A stretch of DNA of 64,000 bases from a virus: IMG/VR virus record IMGVR_UViG_3300047160_003799; one strand, 5' to 3'. A model generated the notes under the pieces. The model did not search any database. It was not told where the DNA came from and saw nothing but the letters and a program-made list of their open reading frames with translations. Positions 1 through 38,242 of the stretch are shown here, in pieces; the stretch's first letter is position 1, and the number at the start of each line of letters is the position of its first letter. The translations under genes and the position numbers were made by a program.

Positions 1-415
1 GCGCATCCTGAGCTTCCTCTAACGGAGACCGAAGCTCTACTTGGGGTGGTGGTCCTGGTGGTCCCATTGGTCCTGGGACTCCTTGTGGTCCTGTTGGTCC
101 TGGTGGACCAGCGGGACCTGGAGGTCCCATTAGCCCTGGTGCAATCCCACCTCTAACAAGCTCGTTTACATACTTGATGAAGGATACTGGAATACCGTCC
201 TCGATAGCCTTGCGCTCAAGTTCCCTGAGTTTCTCGTCGCTCAATGACCTACCCTCCTTGAAACGCGTACATTCGCACTTATGACTCTTGCACTTCTCGA
301 TACACTTCTTGCGGTTTACCTCGCGATGCTGATGGCGAGGATGATGGCAAGTGGCGCATAGTTCTAGATCGTAGAAGCTCATAGGTGACTGGACGGTTCT
401 GCCCCGTCGTATCAT
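1..415 (-). CDS. Collagen-like protein, partial (3' end beyond left window edge). Cys/His-rich N-terminus followed by G-x-y repeats
   Basis: Manual translation of minus strand from Met at 413-415 (alt. Met 380-382, upstream stop at 434-436): MIRRGRTVQSPMSFYDLELCATCHHPRHQHREVNRKKCIEKCKSHKCECTRF...GIAPGLMGPPGPAGPPGPTGPQGVPGPMGPPGPP, then runs off window. Not in ORF track because it has no stop in window. Confidence 0.5.
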   Translation of the reverse strand, partial: MIRRGRTVQSPMSFYDLELCATCHHPRHQHREVNRKKCIEKCKSHKCECTRFKEGRSLSDEKLRELERKAIEDGIPVSFIKYVNELVRGGIAPGLMGPPGPAGPPGPTGPQGVPGPMGPPGPPPQVELRSPLEEAQDA

Positions 416-968: not shown

Positions 969-1043
969 TGGGCTCGGAGAGACTCGAACTCTCATCTTTC
1001 ACTTTAAGAGAATGACGCTCTTCGCGAATTGAGCTACGAGCCC
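969..1043 (-). tRNA. tRNA-Lys (anticodon CTT)
   Basis: RC gives acceptor GGGCTCG/CGAGCCC, T-arm GAGAG-TTCGAGT-CTCTC, anticodon stem TCATT/AGTGA, loop CTCTTAA. Confidence 0.8.
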
Positions 1044-1089
1044 GTAGGTCTTTCTTGTATTCCGAGTATTCTTCGCGTGATTTTGACAT

Positions 1090-1161
1090 TCGGGGCAGCG
1101 GGGATTGAACCCGCGACCTTTAGGTCCCAAACCTAACGCTCTTCCACTGAGCTACGCCCCG
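1090..1161 (-). tRNA. tRNA-Pro (anticodon TGG)
   Basis: RC: CGGGGCG..GCTC-AGTGGAA-GAGC..TTAGG-TTTGGGA-CCTAA..GCGGG-TTCAATC-CCCGC-TGCCCCG. Confidence 0.85.
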
Positions 1162-1397
1162 TCAACATAAACGATTGGCCCATCCCTTTCTGGATTGTAG
1201 ACGATATCGTTGACCTCTTGCCTGAGTGCCTCGGCTGTAACAGAGACGCCAAGATTCCGTAGAGCAAAGAGCCCTATTCCCTTGGATTCGAGAAGAGCAA
1301 TAGCAACATGCTCTGTACCGATCTCACTGTGGTGCATCCCACGAGCGATGCACTTAGCCCTCTTGAGGACACCTTTGAGCATAGCGGTTTGTTTCAT
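1152..1397 (-). CDS. Clp N-terminal (Clp_N/R) domain-like small protein, 81 aa
   Basis: Sequence ...EIGTEHVAIALLESKGIGLFALRNLGVSVTAEALRQEV resembles the Clp_N repeat (IGTEHLLLGLL...LG...LR.EV). Fills exactly the gap between tRNA-Pro and tRNA-Met; stop codon overlaps tRNA-Pro 5' end. Confidence 0.5.
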   Translation of the reverse strand: MKQTAMLKGVLKRAKCIARGMHHSEIGTEHVAIALLESKGIGLFALRNLGVSVTAEALRQEVNDIVYNPERDGPIVYVDGA

Positions 1398-1399
1398 AA

Positions 1400-1472
1400 T
1401 GGGTCCGCTCGGACTCGAACCGAGATTGTTCTCCTTATGAGGGAGGGGCCATAACCGTTAGGCGACGGACCC
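1400..1472 (-). tRNA. tRNA-Met (anticodon CAT, anticodon loop CTCATAA)
   Basis: RC: acceptor GGGTCCG/CGGACCC, T-arm CTCGG-TTCGAGT-CCGAG, anticodon loop C-T-CAT-A-A. Confidence 0.8.
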
Positions 1473-6418: not shown

Positions 6419-6901
6419 GTGATGCCGACTGTGGAGTCATTCACTGAGCCGCCTATCACTGCGGCGCGGATCGCATACCTGCAAAAGCAGGGAATCCCCA
6501 AGGCCATCGCGGAGATCGACCTGGAGATGGTCAAGAGCAAGATGCGGGAGCCCGTGAGAATGGGCGGGCTCCATTGGCGAACCCAATGGTGCGAAATCGC
6601 TGAGGTCGAGTACAAGCGCTTCCTCACCCTGCGGCTGCTCTGGCCGAAGCAAGTCGCCGTCCCGACGACGTTCATCGACCAGATGTGGCATTACCACATC
6701 CTCGCTACCAAGACTTACCGCGAGGACTGTAAGCGCGTGTTCGGCACCTTCCTTGACCATGACCCCTACTTCGGTGGCAGCGACTACATGCTGGCGGCTG
6801 CAGCTACCGAGAGGCACTACGAGCGAACCTTCGGTGAGCTGATGATTCGTCAGCTCATCCCGACGCAAGAAGAGCAGGACGGCAAGCGCCGCTTAGGATA
6901 G
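6419..6901 (+). CDS. hypothetical protein (160 aa), contains WHYHIL...DC motif
   Basis: ORF track. Confidence 0.55.
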   Translation: MMPTVESFTEPPITAARIAYLQKQGIPKAIAEIDLEMVKSKMREPVRMGGLHWRTQWCEIAEVEYKRFLTLRLLWPKQVAVPTTFIDQMWHYHILATKTYREDCKRVFGTFLDHDPYFGGSDYMLAAAATERHYERTFGELMIRQLIPTQEEQDGKRRLG

Positions 6902-6910
6902 GAGGACTGT

Positions 6911-7177
6911 ATGAGTCTCAAGACTGGCGTTACGCGGTTCACCCCCAAGGCGGCGAGATTGCTCGCTGCACACCTGGTCTCGAATCCCAGCTTTGTCGAG
7001 CTGGGCCAGCTCATCCTGCAAGTCGCGAACAGAGTCGGATCCAGGTACGTCATGGACTCCGTTGAGATCTGGATCGAGGACGAGAACGATCTCAAGCAAG
7101 AGGAGCTGGACGAGGCGTCGGACCCCTTCAAGGGAGTTCCCCAAGGCGACCAGGGTTTCTATCACGACCACGACTGA
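6911..7177 (+). CDS. hypothetical protein (88 aa)
   Basis: ORF track; GGAGG RBS. Confidence 0.5.
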   Translation: MSLKTGVTRFTPKAARLLAAHLVSNPSFVELGQLILQVANRVGSRYVMDSVEIWIEDENDLKQEELDEASDPFKGVPQGDQGFYHDHD

Positions 7178-7191
7178 GAAAGAGGTGATCT

Positions 7192-7542
7192 GTGGAACGA
7201 GGCAACATTCACGACGACATCGACATTGACAGCTCGGAGCCGTTCAGACCGATGACTACGAAGGAGCTGGGAGAGCGCTTCCTGGTCTACAAGAAGGATC
7301 CACTGGAAGCCGCGCGCCTGGCCTTCCGAGACGTTGTGCGGTTCGCTCCGCACACCGACTTCCCCGTCAAGGGCAAGGAGGAGCTGGGAATGCTCTACGC
7401 CTTCTCGGAGCCCTACTTGCAGGGCCTTTGGGGAGAGAAGAAGGCGCGCAAGCTCATCAAGCGGCTCAACAAGCTCGCCAGCTTGCTTGGGCTCAACAGC
7501 TACGAGGATCTCTGGCGAGAGGAGTGGGACGATGACGATTAG
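7192..7542 (+). CDS. hypothetical protein (116 aa)
   Basis: ORF track; GTG start in GAAAGAGGTGATCTGTG context. Confidence 0.5.
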   Translation: MERGNIHDDIDIDSSEPFRPMTTKELGERFLVYKKDPLEAARLAFRDVVRFAPHTDFPVKGKEELGMLYAFSEPYLQGLWGEKKARKLIKRLNKLASLLGLNSYEDLWREEWDDDD

Positions 7543-15286: not shown

Positions 15287-15439
15287 TGTTCGCGGAGTTC
15301 TGTTTCCATGCGGCTTCGGTGCTGATGCTCATCCCGATCTCTTTCGGACTGGCGAGAGTGAACAAGCATCCCGACAAACACAAGATCGGCATCGCGGCGC
15401 TTTACGTCGCCACCCTGTTGACCGCGCTCTGGATGTAAC
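15287..15439 (+). CDS. small membrane protein (50 aa)
   Basis: Manual ORF MFAEFCFHAASVLMLIPISFGLARVNKHPDKHKIGIAALYVATLLTALWM. Confidence 0.35.
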
Positions 15440-27595: not shown

Positions 27596-27613
27596 CTCGT
27601 ATCTACATTTCTA

Positions 27614-27686
27614 GCCCACATAGCTCAACTGGTAGAGCACTTCATTTGTAATGAAGATGTTGGGGGTTCGACTCCCTCTGTGGGCT
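27614..27686 (+). tRNA. tRNA-Thr (anticodon TGT)
   Basis: Acceptor GCCCACA/TGTGGGC, D-arm GCTC-AACTGGTA-GAGC, anticodon arm CTTCA-TTTGTAA-TGAAG, T-arm GGGGG-TTCGACT-CCCTC. Confidence 0.85.
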
Positions 27687-27713
27687 TGTTCGTTTTCAAA
27701 AGGGGGGATTCCA

Positions 27714-27959
27714 ATGACCACTATAAGGGAAGAGATAAAGAGCGTTTTCAAGATGATAACTGAATTCTTTGGGAACTACACTGGCACCGCCACTCAGCCT
27801 AAGAAGGAGGAGAAGGCGGAACGTAAGCTCGATGACGCGACCGCTGAGCAGGGCCTCTACTTGGGGAACCTCGACGGCGATGAGCGCACGACAGACTACC
27901 TCGCCAACGAGGAGCTGGGACACGATATCCCGCCGCCCCCAGAGGCTAAGCGTGACTAA
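27714..27959 (+). CDS. hypothetical protein (81 aa)
   Basis: ATG 27714 after GGGGGGATTCCA in frame of ORF 27651..27959 (longer ORF would overlap the tRNA). Confidence 0.45.
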   Translation: MTTIREEIKSVFKMITEFFGNYTGTATQPKKEEKAERKLDDATAEQGLYLGNLDGDERTTDYLANEELGHDIPPPPEAKRD

Positions 27960-28359
27960 GAAGCGTCGAGCAACGACAAAGTGCTGGTACTGCAAGATAC
28001 CGCTGGTGAAGCGGAACGGTGACAAGTACAGCGAGTGCCCGAAGTGCGGATCCAAGGTCCGCGTCTACTTCCGCCTGGACGGAGAAGCTCTGCTTGAAAC
28101 AGGCTACGATTCCGTTCTGCATCTGTGGTATGCACTTGTCAACGTCAACATCCCGACACCAAGCGGGATCTACAGAGGGTTGTCTTCACAGACCAGGAAG
28201 GGCGGATCCGAAGCAGAAGCTCTAGCTCGCGCTATTCCGCTCCTTCTGTACAAGATCAATGAGGTTTGCTGTGGCAAAGAAGACGATAGACGAGGTAGCG
28301 AGCATCGTAGCGCAGATCCAGTTCATGGATCGAAGCTTCCGTCTGCTCCCGAAGGGTAG
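27952..28359 (+). CDS. Zn-ribbon protein (CWYC...CPKC); 3' end uncertain
   Basis: GTG 27952 in frame of ORF 27769..28359; C-terminal 30 aa low-complexity and overlapping next gene. Confidence 0.3.
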   Translation: MTKKRRATTKCWYCKIPLVKRNGDKYSECPKCGSKVRVYFRLDGEALLETGYDSVLHLWYALVNVNIPTPSGIYRGLSSQTRKGGSEAEALARAIPLLLYKINEVCCGKEDDRRGSEHRSADPVHGSKLPSAPEG

Positions 28360-30279: not shown

Positions 30280-30287
30280 CAAAAACA

Positions 30288-30312
30288 ACACCCTGGTTAT
30301 TCCAGGGTGTTG
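30288..30312. terminator. bidirectional terminator hairpin AACACCCTGG-TTATT-CCAGGGTGTT at the convergence point of the two long gene blocks
   Basis: Perfect 10-bp inverted repeat; A-run upstream gives a T-run for the minus strand. Confidence 0.6.
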
Positions 30313-30421
30313 CTATGTACCTAGAACTCGATGATAACTCCGACCTCGATGCCGAAGTTAGGTGGGTTCCCACCTGAATCGTAGAGCTTCTCGTCGTTGG
30401 TGTAGAGGCTAACGCATCCGC

Positions 30422-30682
30422 TCAGTGTGGACAGGAGCAGGAGCCCGAAGAGCAACCGCATACCGATGGATCTCCTGGGCACGGCATGATAGGAGCGCAA
30501 CAGCTATCGCACGGGATGGAGCACGAGCCCTCTGGTGCCTTGCAGCCGCAGTGAAGACCGATGTGCCGCTTAACGCGCTCTGACTCAGTCAGCGGATTTG
30601 CGGCTTGCAGATATGGTGCAGCGAAGGCAATGAAGATAGCTGCTACCCAGCAAGCGATAAGTATCCAAAGGTTCCTTGACAT
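30422..30682 (-). CDS. secreted Cys-rich small protein (86 aa; signal peptide + 12 Cys in ~55 mature residues)
   Basis: ORF track; N-terminal hydrophobic signal WILIACWVAAIFIAFAAP; CGCKAPEGSCSIPCDSCCAPIMPCPGDPSVCGCSSGSCSCPH. Confidence 0.5.
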   Translation of the reverse strand: MSRNLWILIACWVAAIFIAFAAPYLQAANPLTESERVKRHIGLHCGCKAPEGSCSIPCDSCCAPIMPCPGDPSVCGCSSGSCSCPH

Positions 30683-31045
30683 TTAGACCTCCTTGATGCT
30701 TCTGATAAACCCCAATGACTTGAGGATGAGAAGACCCTTCTCGATGTCGTTCAAGTCGTCGGAGTTCAGTTCAACACAGCCGATCCTGATTGGTTCAATG
30801 AGCTGGACCACAAAGCAGCCTTGCTCAATGACCTTCTGTAGACTACGGACGAGGACGTGCGCGGGGGCGTAGCTCGGAGGCTTGAGAGGCCATCGAAAGC
30901 CCTTGTCTTCGCTATCGCTCCAGTAATCAAATTCCCCGCACCATTCCCCTTCGCGACGGAGAGCTAGCACTATCCCACGCCCGCCACCGTCGTTGACGGC
31001 CCATATCGCTAGAAGATGATCCCCCTCGTAGATGTCCATGTCCAT
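30683..31045 (-). CDS. hypothetical protein (121 aa from Met 31045; ORF track extends to 31132 through a repeat array)
   Basis: In-frame MDMDIYEGDH start with GAGG RBS; the upstream 29 codons would be translated from the ATCCCGACA repeats (SGFLSGFF), more likely regulatory. Confidence 0.45.
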   Translation of the reverse strand: MDMDIYEGDHLLAIWAVNDGGGRGIVLALRREGEWCGEFDYWSDSEDKGFRWPLKPPSYAPAHVLVRSLQKVIEQGCFVVQLIEPIRIGCVELNSDDLNDIEKGLLILKSLGFIRSIKEV

Positions 31046-31071
31046 AGGGCCTCTACTGACAAAGACGAAGA

Positions 31072-31152
31072 ATCCCGACAAGAATCCCGACAAACTGTCG
31101 GGATCCCTGTCGGGATAAAGAAGCTGGCCCAAAGGAAGGTTGAAATCCCGAC
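31072..31152 (-). promoter_or_regulatory. operator-like array: ATCCCGACA x2 direct (31072-80, 31084-92), TGTCGGGAT x2 inverted (31096-104, 31108-116), plus ATCCCGAC (31145-52)
   Basis: Read directly; 9-mers separated by exactly 3 nt, forming a dyad-symmetric 45-bp site upstream of gene start 31045. Confidence 0.55.
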
Positions 31153-31170
31153 CAGCTTCCTATTTCGCAA

Positions 31171-31506
31171 TTACACCCTGATAGGACGCTTGTTGAGTGC
31201 AGCGTCGATGGCCTGGACAGCCTCACTGACGGTGGCACAGAAGACGGTGTTCTCAGGCATGGTGCCAACGAAGAGGCCCTTGCCGCTCTTGCTGCTCCAG
31301 ACGTAGGTGTGGCGCGGATGAGGCATAGGGCCTCGCTCGAACGAGAGCGAGGCCATGGACACGCCTGGGATAACGTCGAGCTGGCGAGCTTCCTTGAGTA
31401 GCTCTAGGATCGGCTCGACAGGACCGAAGAGGCTTGGCCTAGCGGTCCAGTCCCTCTTGACGGTTTCCTCGACGTAGTTCCAGCGGTCCTTATGGCCTTC
31501 AATCAC
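31171..31506 (-). CDS. hypothetical protein (111 aa)
   Basis: ORF track. Confidence 0.5.
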   Translation of the reverse strand: MIEGHKDRWNYVEETVKRDWTARPSLFGPVEPILELLKEARQLDVIPGVSMASLSFERGPMPHPRHTYVWSSKSGKGLFVGTMPENTVFCATVSEAVQAIDAALNKRPIRV

Positions 31507-31994
31507 CAGGGTAACTCCTTCTTTCCTTCGTTGAGAACCTCGAAGATCTGAGCGACGGTTGCGTCCTTCGGGAGCGCGTCCAGCTTGGGCTGGATCCTCT
31601 TGTGGCGCTCCAGCATCTCCACGTTGTAGGCGTCCTGAGCTTCCTTGATCTCTCTGAGAGCTTGCTCCTTACCTTCCCACACGTAGCCGAGATCCGCTGC
31701 TGTCTTGAAGCGGCTCTGCTCCTTCTCCTTCTTGGCCTTCGCGCGGAGCCTGGCAGCTTCTTCCTTGCAGGCACAGTCGTCGGGGTTCCCGAACGGCGGG
31801 ACGAGCTGGTTCATCATAGCTCGTGCGTTTCCCGCTTCAAGTGGGATCACGTTCAGAGGCACCTTGACCTTTGCCTTCGCCTTCTCGATGTCGGCCTTGA
31901 TCTTGTCAAGCATGGCTAATGCCTTCGACTTCGAGTTCTCCTGCAGCTTGATGAGGCCGTTGAGCTTTTCTAGCCCTCTTGCCTTGCTGTCCAT
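31503..31994 (-). CDS. coiled-coil protein (163 aa; start may be internal Met)
   Basis: ORF track; K/E/A-rich heptads. Confidence 0.5.
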   Translation of the reverse strand: MDSKARGLEKLNGLIKLQENSKSKALAMLDKIKADIEKAKAKVKVPLNVIPLEAGNARAMMNQLVPPFGNPDDCACKEEAARLRAKAKKEKEQSRFKTAADLGYVWEGKEQALREIKEAQDAYNVEMLERHKRIQPKLDALPKDATVAQIFEVLNEGKKELPW

Positions 31995-32694
31995 GGGCTA
32001 CCTCCTCGCGGTCTACTAGCTCCAGCGTTCCATAGGTCTGACAGTAGAGGAACAGCCGAAGATCGACCTCTCCTAGTAGCTCTATATCATACACCACGGA
32101 CAGATACGAGCACAAGGCATGAGGTGAAGAGAATCCGAAGCGCTGAGCAACACGTATCAGGTGTAAATCAGGCTTTACGGTGTCAAAGCCTAGATTCCTA
32201 GCGAGGTGGTGTGCGATGATCGAGCCCACGTTGGGGAGCTTGTCCAGGTTCGCGATGACCTCCGCTGTTGATAGTTGCCCGAAGTCGAAGTAGCGCTCTG
32301 AGAAGATGACCCAATCAATCGCTTGGAGGTGAGCAGCCACCGCGTAGATCCCGTTGAGCTTACGTCTGTTACCGAAGATCCTCATGGCAGCTTCAAGAGA
32401 GTCTGGCTTGACCTTGAAGGGATCGCGCCCAATCGTATCCATGAGCTTGTCGAAGAAGCCAGTGACGACGGCAGCGTTGAAGCCAGCGACACACGAGCAC
32501 CAAACGTACTCACGCCAAAAGCGCTCTGGTGTCACGGCATCCTTAGCCGTAGAACGAACCCACGCGATGTGCTCTGGATAGTTCACGTCGGACCATCGTT
32601 TGACGGTCTGCCAGAGGTCGTCTGGTCGTTTCCATTTGTTCCAGTGAGGCGGTAGGTCGAGCTTGAGCTGCTCGCGAGGCTTGATCTTTTCCAT
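31906..32694 (-). CDS. HhH-GPD-superfamily (EndoIII/AlkA-like) DNA-glycosylase-fold protein, putative
   Basis: LDKLPNVGSIIAHHLARNLGFDTVKPDLHLIRVAQRFG resembles the helix-hairpin-helix + Gly/Pro...Asp loop (LPGVG.KTA...VDTHV.RV..RLG); no Fe-S Cys cluster. Confidence 0.35.
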   Translation of the reverse strand: MEKIKPREQLKLDLPPHWNKWKRPDDLWQTVKRWSDVNYPEHIAWVRSTAKDAVTPERFWREYVWCSCVAGFNAAVVTGFFDKLMDTIGRDPFKVKPDSLEAAMRIFGNRRKLNGIYAVAAHLQAIDWVIFSERYFDFGQLSTAEVIANLDKLPNVGSIIAHHLARNLGFDTVKPDLHLIRVAQRFGFSSPHALCSYLSVVYDIELLGEVDLRLFLYCQTYGTLELVDREEVAHGQQGKRARKAQRPHQAAGELEVEGISHA

Positions 32695-33891: not shown

Positions 33892-34656
33892 TCAGATGCA
33901 GGGGTCCGCTGCCAGCCGCTTTTTCGAGATGGCTGAGAAGAACGGATCGAATTCCATCCCGATGTAGTGGCGCTTTAATCGCTTTGCCGCCACGAGAAAG
34001 CTTCCGCTTCCACAAGCGTTATCGAGCACGACGGCCCCTTCGTTCGTGAAGGTCTTGATGAGGTATTCGCCAAGAGCAACTGGCTTCTGCGTGGGGTGCG
34101 TGTGGATCGGATCGTCGTTGTTCACCACTGGAATTGCGACCACAGAGGTAGGGTAACGCTCTGTGCTTCCGCCGCCACTATGTTCCTTGCTCTTGCCGTA
34201 ATTGGTGCTGGAAGTGCGGCTAGTGAAGGCGTGGACGGGTGAATGTCCAGTCGTCTTCTGCGGATTGTAGACGGGCTGTTTGTCGTAGAAGATGAGGATA
34301 TCTTCGTGGCAGCGAAGAGGTTGCTTCTTCGCATTCAAGTGCCCACGAACCTTATTCTTCTTCCATACTAGCGAGTACTTGTAGATAGACTCGCCTGCTA
34401 GCATCAGTTTAGCTGAGAAGAGACCGTAGCCTGTCAGAGCAATCACGCCATTTGGTTTGAGTATCCTTCGATATTCAGCCCATAGAGGCTCCATCGGGAT
34501 TGTGGAGTCCCATGGGTTCTGCGTGTGTCCGTAAGGCAGATCGCAGAGGATGAGATCAATGCTCGCATCGTCTACGAATGGCAGGATAAACAGGCAATCA
34601 CCTGTAAGAACATAATCCGTTAGCACGACAACCCCCTCTTGAGTGAAACCGCCCAT
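33892..34656 (-). CDS. DNA methyltransferase, beta-class N6-adenine/N4-cytosine (motif IV DLPY before motif I)
   Basis: IDLILCDLPYG (DPPY-type motif IV) near N-terminus and VLDNACGSGS (FxGxG motif I) near C-terminus = beta-class permutation. Confidence 0.75.
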   Translation of the reverse strand: MGGFTQEGVVVLTDYVLTGDCLFILPFVDDASIDLILCDLPYGHTQNPWDSTIPMEPLWAEYRRILKPNGVIALTGYGLFSAKLMLAGESIYKYSLVWKKNKVRGHLNAKKQPLRCHEDILIFYDKQPVYNPQKTTGHSPVHAFTSRTSSTNYGKSKEHSGGGSTERYPTSVVAIPVVNNDDPIHTHPTQKPVALGEYLIKTFTNEGAVVLDNACGSGSFLVAAKRLKRHYIGMEFDPFFSAISKKRLAADPCI

Positions 34657-34837: not shown

Positions 34838-37800
34838 TTACTCGAAGGCTCCAATCGATGGTGCCGTCGAAGAGCGGACGACGCCGATGATATCTAGCGG
34901 GCAGACCGTGTTAGCGAAGCCCTTGCTCTTGGCTGGACTACCTGCCACGAGCGCGTACTTCGCCTTAGCATCTGCTAGGCCCATAACTCCAGTTGGACTC
35001 TCGTTGACGAGAACCTGAGCACTCGTAACAACGTCGCTTGCAAGCGGGAATGACGGGAGCGCAGGACCAGACTGGCCGTTGAAGCTACCCTTCCAGAGAT
35101 CGTTGGAGACCGTCATGGTTAGGTCGCTATTGCCATCATTCTCAGCATATAGCGGCTTGCCTGTAGCGATGATCAGGTTGTTACGGACATCTAGGCCATA
35201 GTTCCCGATCTGCGTTCCAGAGCCAGATCCGCCCCACGTTGGGCGATAGACGACGAAGCTCGACTGAGTGACGATGGTGTTGTTGTAGATCTGCGCGCCT
35301 TGGATTCCACGGAACTCGATGCAGGAGTCCGTATTGTTGCAGATGAGGTTGTTACGGTAGATCTGGTTGACAGCTTCGACCTTCGGGTTCATGTGGTTTG
35401 GATCGAAGAACGATGCGCCAGTGTCACCGCCGCACATGATAGCTGCAGCCTTGATGATGCCGCTGATGAGGCAATCCTCTACGAGCAAGTTCTCTGAACC
35501 ACCCTTGAAGAAGATGCCTGGGCAAGTGAGGGAACCGTTGACTCCATCGTGGAGCCAGCAACGGCGCACGACGGCATGACGAACGGCGACAGCATCTACG
35601 ATGGCGTTCGATAGTGAACCCGAGAAGTCGCAATCCTCAAGATAGAGGCCATCCACAGGATTGAACGAAGAACCGCTATAGACACCAGCGATCTTGATCG
35701 AGGCGCCTACACCAGATGCCATCGCCTTGCTTGTGACATTGCGCAGAATGAGGTTCGATGCAGGGCCAACAACGTGGATGTTATTGCCCTTACCGTTGAT
35801 GACCGTGAGGTTCTGCACAAGCACGTTGGAAGCCTGGACAGCCATCTCGCCAGTGTTCTTGAGGTCGATGATAACGGTGGCTCCTGCTGCACCACGGACG
35901 ATAGACCAAGCCGCCGCCGTCCCTGACTTCGTGATGCCAGGGTAGTTCGACCCGTCGTAGGTTCCAGCAGCCAGTTCAACAATCGTTCCTGGGGCGACCT
36001 TGTTGAAGGCGTTCTGGACGTTACCTATCGACGGATCGACGGCGACAACATTGGTTGCCCCCACGACGGTCGGAGCCGTGAACCATGCTGGTTCGCCTGG
36101 GCTCGGAGTCGGGGTAGGCGTTGGTGTCGGTGTAGGAGTAGGTGTCGGCGTTGGAGTCGGTGTCGGAGTAGGCGTTGGTGTTGGAGGAGATGGAGTAGGT
36201 GTTGGAGGCGTCGGTGTTGGCGTAGGGGGTGTCGGAGTCGGTGTTGGTGGTGTTGGAGTTGGCGTAGGTGGTGACGGCGGGCCACCACCTGGAGGTGCAT
36301 CGCCCTTCTGCGTTAGGAAGTAGGCGTTGTACCACATCTGCCAAGCGAAGTAACGAGGCTTGCCAGCGAACTCCGACGCCTGGATCTTGTTGTACTGCCC
36401 GTATGCGCGGAGGCACGACTGTTGAGCAAGAGTCTTCTTCGTAGCTGGGTCTGGGCAGTATGCAGCGTGCTGCGAGACATAGAGCGGCGTCGAGCTACCA
36501 GCCTGATTGACCCACATCGTCAGATCTGGCGTATTCGACACAGAGTCATAGCAGACAACAAGGTTGCTGTTCTGACCACCAGTCGGATCCGTCCACGGGA
36601 ACCCGATAACCTGCAGATACGCTTGCTGCTGGTTGTAAGACATCTGAGCGAGGGACACATCGCCAGTAACCTGAGCAGCTACACGGAGAGCGTGCATGAG
36701 CATCGTATCTTGGAACGACGCGATGCCAGGGAAGCCGACGAAGTTATAGGTCGTTGGCCCCGTAATGAGCAGCGCTCCAGAAGCGTTCTTGAAGTTCGCG
36801 TTCTTCGGGAAGAGAACTCGAAGATCCGAACCTGCTGGCTGGTTATCGAATGTTCCACTTCCGTTGACATAGAACTTCGGCATCGAGATGAAGCCGTTGT
36901 AGACTGGCGCAGCCTTGATGCCAGCAATGACGGCCTGGATCTGAGGCATTACGTTACGGATGCCGATCTTCTGCTGGTAGTAGGCGAGGCACTGGAGCGG
37001 ACGTGCTGCTCCACGAGTCTCAACGTACTTCGTCGGAAGCTGAGCAGACGACGTGATGAAGTCAAGCAGACGGTTGATCGCGTCGAGCGTCGGCTGGTCC
37101 TGGTTATCAACGTACCAGTCAACGAGACCCATCATGTAGAAGTGAGTCTGGTTGGCGAAAGCCTTGCCTGACGCTGGCACAGAGTAGACGTTGACCATCC
37201 AGTCATGCTCGTACTGAGCTTGCTTGAGGAAGCCGAGATTACCTGTGCGCTTGTAGAGGCGATAGTAATCGCGGAGGTCATCCGACTCTGTATCCCACTC
37301 TACGTTAGTAGATGTGCTCTTGTTCTGCTTCGGCACGAACGAGGCGTAGCTCGCTTGGAGATCTGCAACAGTTGTGTTGAAGCCAAGAGAGTTGTACCAA
37401 GCAACCTCTTCATCCTCAGTCATCCAGTCCGTCGAGGCAGGATAGCCCCAGATGCCACCGCTTGGCGGCGACGGTGTTGGAGTCGGGGGAGACGGAGTTG
37501 GTGTAGGCGGCGAGGGTGTTGGCGTCGGAGGAGAAGGCGTGGGTGTAGGCGGGGAAGGTGTCGGTGTCGGGGGCGACGGAGTAGGAGTCGGAGGAGACGG
37601 TGTTGGTGTAGGAGGCGAAGGTGTTGGTGATGGCGGCGACGTAACTGTGAAGTCGCCTGCAGGTAGGTCAGCCATACCTGCTGCATTTACCGTGACTGGA
37701 CCTGTGACCGCATTTGCGGGAACTGGCAGAAGAAGTGTGCTTGTAGTGCCTACGTCGGTCCTCTGCAAGTTCTGAGTTGAGGTCGAACCAGAGAACGTGA

Positions 37801-38242
37801 CACCAACAGGAGTCGGAAGATTCTCGCCAACGATTGTTACTGGCGTTCCAACAGGCCCCGATGTAGGTGACATCGAGTCGATGATTGGAGTTGGCGTCGG
37901 TGTAGGTGTGGGCGGGCTAGGTGTTGGAGTCGGTGGCGATGGTGTTGGCGTAGGAGGAGACGGGGTAGGTGTCGGAGGTGAAGGAGTAGGAGTAGGCGGG
38001 GAAGGTGTAGGAGAAGGCGGGATTGGCGCATTCTGCTGAATGAGCCAGTTGTAGTAACCAACCGCCGAATAAAGATCCGCCTGGACTTGATTGAGAAGTC
38101 CAGCGAGCTTGTTAACCTGGAATGGGTTCAATGTGATGGGATACGTCACATCGTCCTGAGCATGGAATTGCTCTATCAGGGACGAGAAGTCGAAAGTAGG
38201 TCCTGTGTCTGTCATGGCAATTCCTTTGTGGGCTAGGTGCAA
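34838..38242 (-). CDS. large multi-domain protein with three Pro-Thr linkers, TIG/Ig-like module and C-terminal right-handed beta-helix (pectate-lyase fold): tailspike/depolymerase-like
   Basis: ORF track. (PTPSPPT)n linkers at three sites. VTIVGENL...VTFSGS Ig-like segment. C-terminal repeats NNTIV / RNNLI / NIHVVG / EDCDFSG typical of parallel beta-helix. Confidence 0.7.
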   Translation of the reverse strand: MHLAHKGIAMTDTGPTFDFSSLIEQFHAQDDVTYPITLNPFQVNKLAGLLNQVQADLYSAVGYYNWLIQQNAPIPPSPTPSPPTPTPSPPTPTPSPPTPTPSPPTPTPSPPTPTPTPTPIIDSMSPTSGPVGTPVTIVGENLPTPVGVTFSGSTSTQNLQRTDVGTTSTLLLPVPANAVTGPVTVNAAGMADLPAGDFTVTSPPSPTPSPPTPTPSPPTPTPSPPTPTPSPPTPTPSPPTPTPSPPTPTPSPPTPTPSPPSGGIWGYPASTDWMTEDEEVAWYNSLGFNTTVADLQASYASFVPKQNKSTSTNVEWDTESDDLRDYYRLYKRTGNLGFLKQAQYEHDWMVNVYSVPASGKAFANQTHFYMMGLVDWYVDNQDQPTLDAINRLLDFITSSAQLPTKYVETRGAARPLQCLAYYQQKIGIRNVMPQIQAVIAGIKAAPVYNGFISMPKFYVNGSGTFDNQPAGSDLRVLFPKNANFKNASGALLITGPTTYNFVGFPGIASFQDTMLMHALRVAAQVTGDVSLAQMSYNQQQAYLQVIGFPWTDPTGGQNSNLVVCYDSVSNTPDLTMWVNQAGSSTPLYVSQHAAYCPDPATKKTLAQQSCLRAYGQYNKIQASEFAGKPRYFAWQMWYNAYFLTQKGDAPPGGGPPSPPTPTPTPPTPTPTPPTPTPTPPTPTPSPPTPTPTPTPTPTPTPTPTPTPTPTPTPSPGEPAWFTAPTVVGATNVVAVDPSIGNVQNAFNKVAPGTIVELAAGTYDGSNYPGITKSGTAAAWSIVRGAAGATVIIDLKNTGEMAVQASNVLVQNLTVINGKGNNIHVVGPASNLILRNVTSKAMASGVGASIKIAGVYSGSSFNPVDGLYLEDCDFSGSLSNAIVDAVAVRHAVVRRCWLHDGVNGSLTCPGIFFKGGSENLLVEDCLISGIIKAAAIMCGGDTGASFFDPNHMNPKVEAVNQIYRNNLICNNTDSCIEFRGIQGAQIYNNTIVTQSSFVVYRPTWGGSGSGTQIGNYGLDVRNNLIIATGKPLYAENDGNSDLTMTVSNDLWKGSFNGQSGPALPSFPLASDVVTSAQVLVNESPTGVMGLADAKAKYALVAGSPAKSKGFANTVCPLDIIGVVRSSTAPSIGAFE
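36098..36288. repeat. PT-linker coding microsatellite 3 (GGTGTNGGNGTNGG... repeats)
   Basis: Read directly; encodes PPTPTPTPTPTPTPTPTP on minus strand. Confidence 0.7.
37462..37642. repeat. PT-linker coding microsatellite 2
   Basis: Read directly; encodes SPPTPTPSPPTPTPSPPT... x8. Confidence 0.7.
37889..38030. repeat. PT-linker coding microsatellite 1
   Basis: Read directly. Confidence 0.7.

Follow-up and report, generated by a model that had tools for sequence, protein, structure and literature searches.

Among the closest described counterparts of the locus reported here are operators built from clusters of short units: the heptads of the omega repressor in pSM19035, the hexamers of the Fur box in forward-forward-x-reverse order, and the 12-bp repeats of tubC, which are bound by TubR. 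An array found between positions 31,046 and 31,170 of the window, by which is meant the whole 64-kb stretch of viral DNA that was analysed, shares with these operators its short conserved units, a strict register (12 bp, as in tubC), a mixture of direct and inverted units, and free spacers. The array is a non-random, intergenic, cis-acting element under selection. An array of operator-type protein sites is the single most likely reading of it, although a tentative one. To our knowledge, no DnaA, LexA, CRP, PhoB, Spo0A, sigma-54 or resolvase site fits either the repeated word or its 12-nt register.

The array occupies most of the 125-nt gap between the minus-strand ORFs 31171..31506 and 30683..31045. 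The plus strand from 31070 to 31120 reads gaATCCCGACAagaATCCCGACAaacTGTCGGGATcccTGTCGGGATaaag and contains the exact 9-nt word ATCCCGACA at 31072–31080 and 31084–31092; the same word is found on the minus strand at 31096–31104 and 31108–31116. Words are spaced exactly 12 nt from start to start, AAC at 31093–31095 forms the dyad centre, and the two 21-nt arms about this centre are 90% complementary. The preliminary description had reported five copies of the word in front of ORF 30683..31045, with 12-bp periodicity and a dyad about AAC. Periodicity and dyad were confirmed with four exact words, while the fifth copy, at 31145, matches at only eight of nine positions and is missing from L285, a 3.2-kb contig that encodes the same two flanking proteins at 84–87% identity and is the only close relative found. 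The features of the region are as follows, in order of transcription.

31171..31506, minus strand: upstream gene, encoding 111 aa without a family match; 54 nt separate its stop codon from word 1 (15 nt in L285)
31120..31159, minus strand: separate 40-nt hairpin carrying the fifth copy, with arms GAAGCTGG / CCAGCTTC; an insertion relative to L285
31145..31153: degenerate fifth copy, an inverted-type word with an 8/9 match, reading ATCCCGACC on the plus strand and GGTCGGGAT on the minus strand
31108..31116, minus strand: word 1, reading ATCCCGACA; exact match, same in L285
31096..31104, minus strand: word 2, reading ATCCCGACA; forms the inner 9-3-9 palindrome with word 3, same in L285
31084..31092, minus strand: word 3, inverted, reading TGTCGGGAT followed by TC, as in bacterial modules
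31072..31080, minus strand: word 4, inverted, reading TGTCGGGAT followed by TC
31046..31071, minus strand: 26-nt tail 3' of the array, giving a U-rich stretch of transcript (UCUUCGUCUUUGUC); 20 of 26 bases kept in L285
30683..31045, minus strand: downstream gene, encoding 120 aa without a family match; true start at ATG 31045 or 31039
30422..30682, minus strand: small ORF after the downstream gene, apparently membrane-bound, with an N-terminal hydrophobic segment and Cys-rich
30321..30500, minus strand: small ORF with a lipobox (LSTLSGC), overlapping 30422..30682

The inverted word with its TC extension, TGTCGGGATTC, is present twice on the minus strand of the window. A Shine-Dalgarno sequence, AGAGG, lies inside the 26-nt tail at 31050–31054. 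The gap between the fifth copy and word 1 measures 28 nt, one base off the 29-nt lattice spacing of the multi-module loci described below; neither this copy nor the 40-nt hairpin that carries it is present in L285.

The search for further copies of the 9-mer that had been proposed in the preliminary description was run on the 64-kb window and returned seven exact copies against 0.48 expected, as determined from 100 dinucleotide-preserving shuffles (maximum of four copies, none at seven). The three copies outside the array, at 15368, 28150 and 39143, are solitary and lie within long ORFs. A scan for triplets of word, word and inverted word, in 12-nt register and with at least 16 of the 18 invariant positions matched, returned this site alone, no second array in the 64-kb window, and no hits in 20 shuffled sequences.

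On its sense strand, L285 reads TAA, 15 nt, ATCCCGACA cgt ATCCCGACA act TGTCGGGAT tct TGTCGGGAT, tctgcgtctttctaaacagaggccgt, ATG. None of the 36 word bases differs between the window and L285, whereas four of the nine spacer bases do (Fisher p = 8.5e-4); strong purifying selection thus acts on the words but not on the spacers. Over the same comparison, 6 of 26 tail bases and 47 of 118 third codon positions of the downstream gene (40%) are changed. Scans of viral contigs in a protein-based search for relatives were empty. A homologue of the downstream protein at 31% identity is encoded in another contig (L305), which carries no array. Two complementarities to the ribosome-binding region were also observed. 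The Shine-Dalgarno region of the window, 31046–31054, is complementary at 9/9 positions to 31272–31280 within the upstream gene. L285 carries an 8-nt anti-Shine-Dalgarno sequence, GGCCTCTG, directly 5' of its array (about 2000–2007 and 2070–2077), and the array hairpin would therefore cap a helix hiding the ribosome-binding site.

A TTG start for the downstream gene at 31132, which would make the array part of the coding sequence, was rejected. Translated from this codon, the repeats read SGFLSGFF as the preliminary description stated, and its suspicion that such a start is an artefact was borne out. The homologue in L285 begins at an ATG located 3' of the array and preceded by a conserved Shine-Dalgarno sequence, AGAGGCC, and all L285 differences within the would-be extension are non-synonymous. 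The position of the L285 start and these amino-acid-changing differences therefore identify the TTG start as artefactual.

The window looks like part of a large uncultured phage, and no near-identical match to it was found among deposited phages. Its plus-strand genes extend as far as ~30279; those of the minus strand run from 64000 to ~30321. Where the two blocks converge, a 13-bp hairpin with T-runs (30284–30314) looks like a two-way terminator. The minus-strand block contains structural genes, a beta-helix tail-fibre-like protein (34838..38242), a DNA methyltransferase (33892..34656) and several ORFs without a family match; RNR-like and RNA-ligase-like proteins are also encoded in the window. 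ORF 31906..32694, near the methyltransferase, matches the PADLOC 'OGG' model (E = 1.8e-28), and a Lar-like restriction-alleviation match is located further away at 27769..28359. Together, the methyltransferase, OGG-like and Lar-like genes suggest a DNA-modification or anti-restriction neighbourhood. The layout of ORFs 30422..30682 and 30321..30500 resembles that of an embedded spanin pair, and the genes following the array may therefore be part of a lysis cassette. The tRNA genes of the window are located as follows.

969–1472 (minus strand) and 27613–27687 (plus strand): four tRNA genes, Lys-CTT, Pro-TGG, Met-CAT and Thr-TGT

The array is one copy of a widespread, apparently undescribed family of modules, which is represented in many unrelated uncultured phages. 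Words of the family are 9 nt long, have the form ATCNNGNCA and keep a 12-nt register, into which the window array fits in both direct and inverted orientation. A family module consists of word, 3 nt, word, 3 nt and inverted word (2+1), and the window copy comprises a forward pair and an inverted pair of words (2+2). Between one and five modules occur in tandem, and in multi-module loci they are separated by a non-conserved spacer of mostly exactly 29 nt, which results in a 62-nt period. Word positions 1–3, 6, 8 and 9 (ATC, G, CA) are invariant; positions 4, 5 and 7 vary between modules and are usually matched inside one module. In unselected sister modules the inverted arms are perfectly complementary in 16 of 19 pairs, and several loci have a decayed middle word with the outer pair, 15 nt apart, still perfect. 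Direct words are also kept where no complementary partner exists, as in a run upstream of the L280 array and in four words of the L007 group. In 21 unbiased 2+2 arrays the variable positions match at ~79% each for nested, crossed and direct pairs. The rule is therefore that all words of one array are alike, and not specifically that hairpin arms pair. Spacers and flanks are not significantly complementary (P about 0.09–0.10).

Modules have a consistent orientation. The order word, word, inverted word, followed by TC, runs in the sense of the upstream gene, and the same order is found on the minus strand of the window. Modules start 0–60 nt past the stop codon of a co-directional gene (54 nt in the window and 15 nt in L285), and, taken over all family loci, array position follows the end of the gene upstream no less consistently than the beginning of the gene downstream.

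An exact-pattern scan found pairs of direct words at a distance of 12 nt in 41 viral contigs. The inner palindrome occurs in at least 120 viral contigs, with 110 of those listed belonging to one AT-rich lineage, and in at least 120 genome contigs from nearly all bacterial phyla. Most of the listed bacterial matches to the bare ATCCCGACA-N3-TGTCGGGAT sequence are plain A-tract/hairpin/T-tract terminators, which were counted as background and not as evidence; other bacterial matches are arrays with the architecture of the window, for example gaATCCCGACAataATCCCGACAaagTGTCGGGATtcg. A degenerate pattern in the 2+2 layout with ATC..G.CA fixed, comprising 24 specified bases and expected by chance at 1 in 2.8e14 per position by our own arithmetic, was found at 25 loci (6 viral and 19 metagenome loci). 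Alternative words at these loci include ATCGCGACA, ATCCGGACA, ATCCCGCCA and ATCTTGTCA.

In bacteria, arrays were found between the cassettes of type I R-M and defence operons, with HsdR, PtuA/AriA-like ATPase, Schlafen AlbA_2, RhuM and DUF4276 genes as neighbours. In 24 of 62 array loci the stop codon of a HATPase_c_4-wHTH gene lies no more than about 120 nt, and often no more than 10 nt, ahead of the array, whereas such a gene occurs anywhere in only 4 of 82 plain-hairpin loci. Proteins of this family are ~500 aa long and combine a cytidine-deaminase domain, HATPase_c_4 and a C-terminal wHTH, with the C-terminal motif ...RVGKGPATRYEV; their genes are almost always located directly 5' of word arrays. 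A weak match of the middle region to PADLOC Argonaute-associated domains was also observed. Examples of the family, to which about 20 other bacterial loci can be added, are listed here.

L198, 3698–5545: HATPase_c_4-wHTH gene
L183, 81–1577: HATPase_c_4-wHTH gene
L288, 79–1596: HATPase_c_4-wHTH gene

As a separate observation, two Acido-Lenti-1 RNA motifs, unrelated to the word arrays, were detected in contig L277 at 246–290 (+) and 114–158 (−), with scores of 41.3 and 35.9 bits (gathering score 37); they lie upstream of a type I R-M specificity-like gene.

The contexts of the phage copies are varied. In the AT-rich phage lineage the array follows an RNR gene and precedes a baseplate gene, with a run of T5–7 located 3' of the module. 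Two homologous arrays (L019 and L283) are placed directly after groEL and ahead of the next start codon, and a compensatory C:G to A:T change distinguishes them. One module (L034) lies 26 nt before a primase-helicase gene. In L001, at least 13 GTCGGGA / TCCCGAC half-words are found in both orientations and at irregular spacing at 6870–7200, over ~350 bp directly after a DnaG-type primase gene, a region that looks like an origin with iterons. Arrays also occur in gene-flux regions, namely defence islands and tRNA clusters with homing-endonuclease genes, and five contigs have them inside tRNA clusters (L289, L300, L303, L096 and L138). The tRNA clusters of AT-rich phage-like contigs additionally contain a reduced RNase P-like RNA (L291, 1213–1483, minus strand; L281, 2108–2399, minus strand). 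It is matched end to end by the bacterial class A model at 38.3 bits (E = 1.3e-10 in a 431-nt search; gathering score 100), is devoid of the specificity-domain columns, and contains, in order, the conserved regions GAGGAAGUUC, GGUGCAAGCCAAACAGACC, UUAGAUAAAUGAUGG and ACAGAAUUCUGGCUAC. Helix P3 of this RNA is a 2+2 word array in both L291 and L281. The RNase P model gave no detection on the homologous flanks in L300 and L302. Since the module serves as P3 and also lies in spacers between tRNA genes, it is certainly transcribed in some settings.

As regards a cognate DNA-binding protein encoded in the 64-kb window, Pfam analysis of 114 ORFs gave 34 families, and none of the 25 listed was recognised as DNA-binding. 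The two flanking proteins showed no relation to the bacterial wHTH domain by profile comparison, and neither the window nor the viral loci yielded a HATPase_c_4-wHTH homologue. No protein family was common to the array neighbourhoods across phage lineages; only spurious ORFs reading through the arrays clustered. A consensus scan for a minus-strand sigma-70-like promoter over the array was negative, with the limitation that the promoter type of the host may differ. Rfam returned nothing meaningful over the array in the window and in 16 array loci, a literature search by sequence returned primers and unrelated matches only, and BLAST against cultured phages gave no match for the region, the array or the module of the AT-rich lineage.

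Several other element types were considered and rejected. A CRISPR array is inconsistent with words that differ between modules and with spacers shared by related genomes, and cas genes were not observed. REP/BIME elements do not agree with a single array in the 64-kb window and the absence of a GTAG flank. A tRNA or attP relic was dismissed on the basis of a missing T-loop and the lack of a tRNA call in the window region; the words resemble the ends of tRNA-Pro acceptor stems in some phages.

Minus-strand RNA over the array is predicted to fold with −73.6 kcal/mol (z = −6.7). The array itself forms a two-tier hairpin composed of 9 bp, a 3 × 3 internal loop, 9 bp and a 3-nt loop. In the window the internal loop is closed by G-U and G-C pairs (GGG with UCU), resulting in a helix of 21 continuous bp on the gene strand alone; the opposite strand would carry A-C mismatches. 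L285, with cgt and tct as spacers, lacks this GGG:UCU pairing. A terminator scan flagged the array hairpin with the tail TCTTCGTCTT, and the hairpin is G+C-rich, has a short loop and lies on the transcribed strand at a gene 3' end, as is typical of an intrinsic terminator. The tail UCUUCGUCUU passes a lenient scan (at least five T in eight) but is interrupted, and is alike in L285.

The reading tentatively preferred for the array is a set of DNA sites recognised by a protein, forming a putative operator or roadblock before the last three genes. We infer protein binding, DNA rather than RNA as the target, and an effect on expression. The repressor/activator operator suggested in the preliminary description is partly supported: it agrees with the dyad half-sites, conserved arms, free spacers and fixed register, but gained nothing from the Pfam families listed for the window or from the minus-strand sigma-70 consensus scan over the array. 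In dozens of loci it is the arms that contain the invariant letters, whereas variation is free in the 3-nt centre and in the spacers. Such a pattern is usual for major-groove DNA half-sites and is the reverse of that in most protein-RNA hairpin sites. A DNA site is also suggested by a 12-nt and 29-nt geometry that is fixed without sequence conservation, by the retention of unpaired direct words and the equal matching of nested, crossed and direct pairs, and by the location of bacterial arrays directly 3' of genes for proteins with a C-terminal wHTH (24/62 versus 4/82). It is harder to reconcile with a window that offers no candidate binder among the Pfam families listed, phage lineages that share no neighbour protein, a scan that finds no sigma-70-like minus-strand promoter over the array, and a single array in 64 kb. 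The 2+1 modules keep one orientation to transcription and start 0–60 nt past stop codons, one bacterial locus uses different words in successive modules, which is not easily attributed to one DNA-binding specificity, and in other phages the 2+2 module is also found as helix P3 and between tRNA genes. Use of the module as an RNA helix elsewhere and its order relative to the direction of transcription make a role at the RNA level a serious rival, albeit a somewhat unlikely one. The array would then be a cistron-boundary hairpin in the minus-strand late transcript that sets the expression of the last three genes relative to those upstream, through one or more of partial intrinsic termination, processing of RNase III or another type, and protection of the mRNA end, perhaps with recognition of the RNA by a protein. 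The strong fold (z = −6.7), the 21-bp stem continuous on the gene strand alone and the positive terminator scan are consistent with this role, as are the word-word-inverted-word order in upstream-gene sense at bacterial loci with an identified upstream gene, the short distance from stop codons (0–60 nt) and the T5–7 run after the module in the AT-rich phage lineage. The perfect inverted arms in 16/19 pairs, the compensatory change between L019 and L283, the agreement of variable positions inside each module alongside different words in successive modules at a locus, and the copies in P3 of the RNase P-like RNA (E = 1.3e-10) and in tRNA-cluster spacers argue in the same direction. Pairing alone, however, does not predict six invariant stem letters with a free loop. 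Changes at word position 4 are uncompensated in several 2+2 arrays, including the P3 copies, and nested pairs match no better than crossed pairs. Moreover, the GGG:UCU extension is lost in L285, the U-tract of the window is weak and interrupted, and GC-rich bacteria have no U-tract after the module. Between DNA and RNA, the evidence is decisive on neither side.

The remaining explanations carry less weight. It is improbable that the phage copy is a decoy, which would imitate the module behind HATPase_c_4-wHTH genes and, as DNA or as RNA, titrate or mislead a host protein through putative binding as an anti-defence measure. Words, register, the orientation-specific TC extension and the lattice are common to phage and bacterial copies, linkage to the effector gene is tight in the bacterial arrays, the phage copies are 'orphans' accompanied by no homologue of it, and methyltransferase, OGG-like and Lar-like genes are found in the neighbourhood of the window array. 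The decoy proposal must nonetheless contend with arrays that follow other cassette genes (RhuM, DUF4276), and it does not explain the copies in RNase P-like RNA and tRNA clusters. A broader scheme, to which a similarly small likelihood is assigned, would have the module act as the cis partner (a loading, regulatory or inhibitory site, in DNA or RNA) of the deaminase-HATPase_c_4-wHTH effectors in type I R-M operons, with the phage orphans as mimics that neutralise or exploit the defence and one lineage having built the module into P3 of a reduced RNase P RNA. A role as a DNA site in replication, packaging or recombination (as origin iterons, a pac-type site or a hot spot of cassette exchange) is considered very unlikely. 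The half-words after the DnaG-type primase gene in L001, the module 26 nt before the primase-helicase gene in L034, the presence of a single array in the 64 kb covered and the location of arrays in gene-flux regions would suit such a site; the window array, however, is adjacent to no replication or terminase gene and to no AT-rich unwinding region, and the bacterial copies lie within R-M operons with no linked recombinase. Least probable of all is an ordinary intrinsic terminator whose arms were duplicated by chance and which is recognised by nothing sequence-specific. The many bare-palindrome bacterial matches that are A-tract/hairpin/T-tract terminators and the positive terminator scan of the window agree with such an origin, but it does not explain why the same letters are invariant in unrelated lineages, why the 12-nt and 29-nt spacing is fixed, or why direct-only runs of words and 25 loci with the 24-base degenerate pattern exist.

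If the array is indeed a set of protein-bound DNA sites, it would provide a sequence-specific protein with a cluster of four sites on double-stranded DNA. Assembly would be cooperative at one unit per 12 bp and would yield either a dimer of dimers or a short filament. Located 29 bp ahead of ORF 30683..31045, this complex would control the transcription that reaches the last three genes (30683..31045, 30422..30682 and 30321..30500), whether it comes from the long late operon on the minus strand or from an overlapping promoter that the scan did not recognise. Once transcribed, the array would unavoidably fold into the two-tier hairpin with its U-rich tail, probably resulting in partial termination or an effect on the mRNA end.

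Should the family be real, it would constitute conserved non-coding 'punctuation' common to phages of very different base composition and to bacterial defence islands. Knowing the binding factor would explain the insulation or regulation of accessory-gene cassettes in phages and defence islands alike, and might reveal a link between phage and host defence. In this phage, the array marks the point at which the operon is divided, with its final three late genes, which may function in lysis, set apart; the start of ORF 30683..31045 is also corrected.

As a coding-strand intercistronic hairpin with a U-rich tail and two stacked helices of ~9–10 bp around an internal loop, ~21 bp in all, the array resembles intrinsic terminators and T7-type intercistronic RNase III sites, although any cleavage here would be putative. 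It differs from both in that the letters of the stem are conserved across unrelated phages and the U-tract is weak, and the commoner 2+1 form of the module has a stem of just 9 bp. Promoter-early stem-loops (PeSLs) of T4-type phages and REP/BIME elements are similar in being hairpin cassettes, short and conserved, that lie between genes beside small accessory genes in regions of gene flux and adopt regular higher-order arrangements. These elements, however, number tens to hundreds per genome against one copy in this 64-kb window, and the word modules have no GTAG motif, RAYT gene or recognisable promoter half, while their words are common across phyla. The pseudo-ToxI of PhiTE, an RNA mimic of a type III antitoxin, is comparable as a phage orphan copy of a repeat linked to defence genes. 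ToxI nevertheless consists of identical tandem units upstream of the toxin, whereas the word modules diverge, lie downstream and show no relation to a toxin-antitoxin system. With sopB-sopC and P1 parB-parS the bacterial arrays share a position directly 3' of the gene for a wHTH protein, but their setting is an R-M/defence operon instead of partition, and the phage copies lack the gene. The omega, Fur and tubC operators differ from the word modules in that the word sequence is unrelated and no cognate protein was found for the words, and in that the word modules keep one orientation to transcription, follow stop codons and use different words when they succeed one another at one locus. Among these operators, the Fur box also has the layout of the word modules, in which two forward units are followed by one in reverse.
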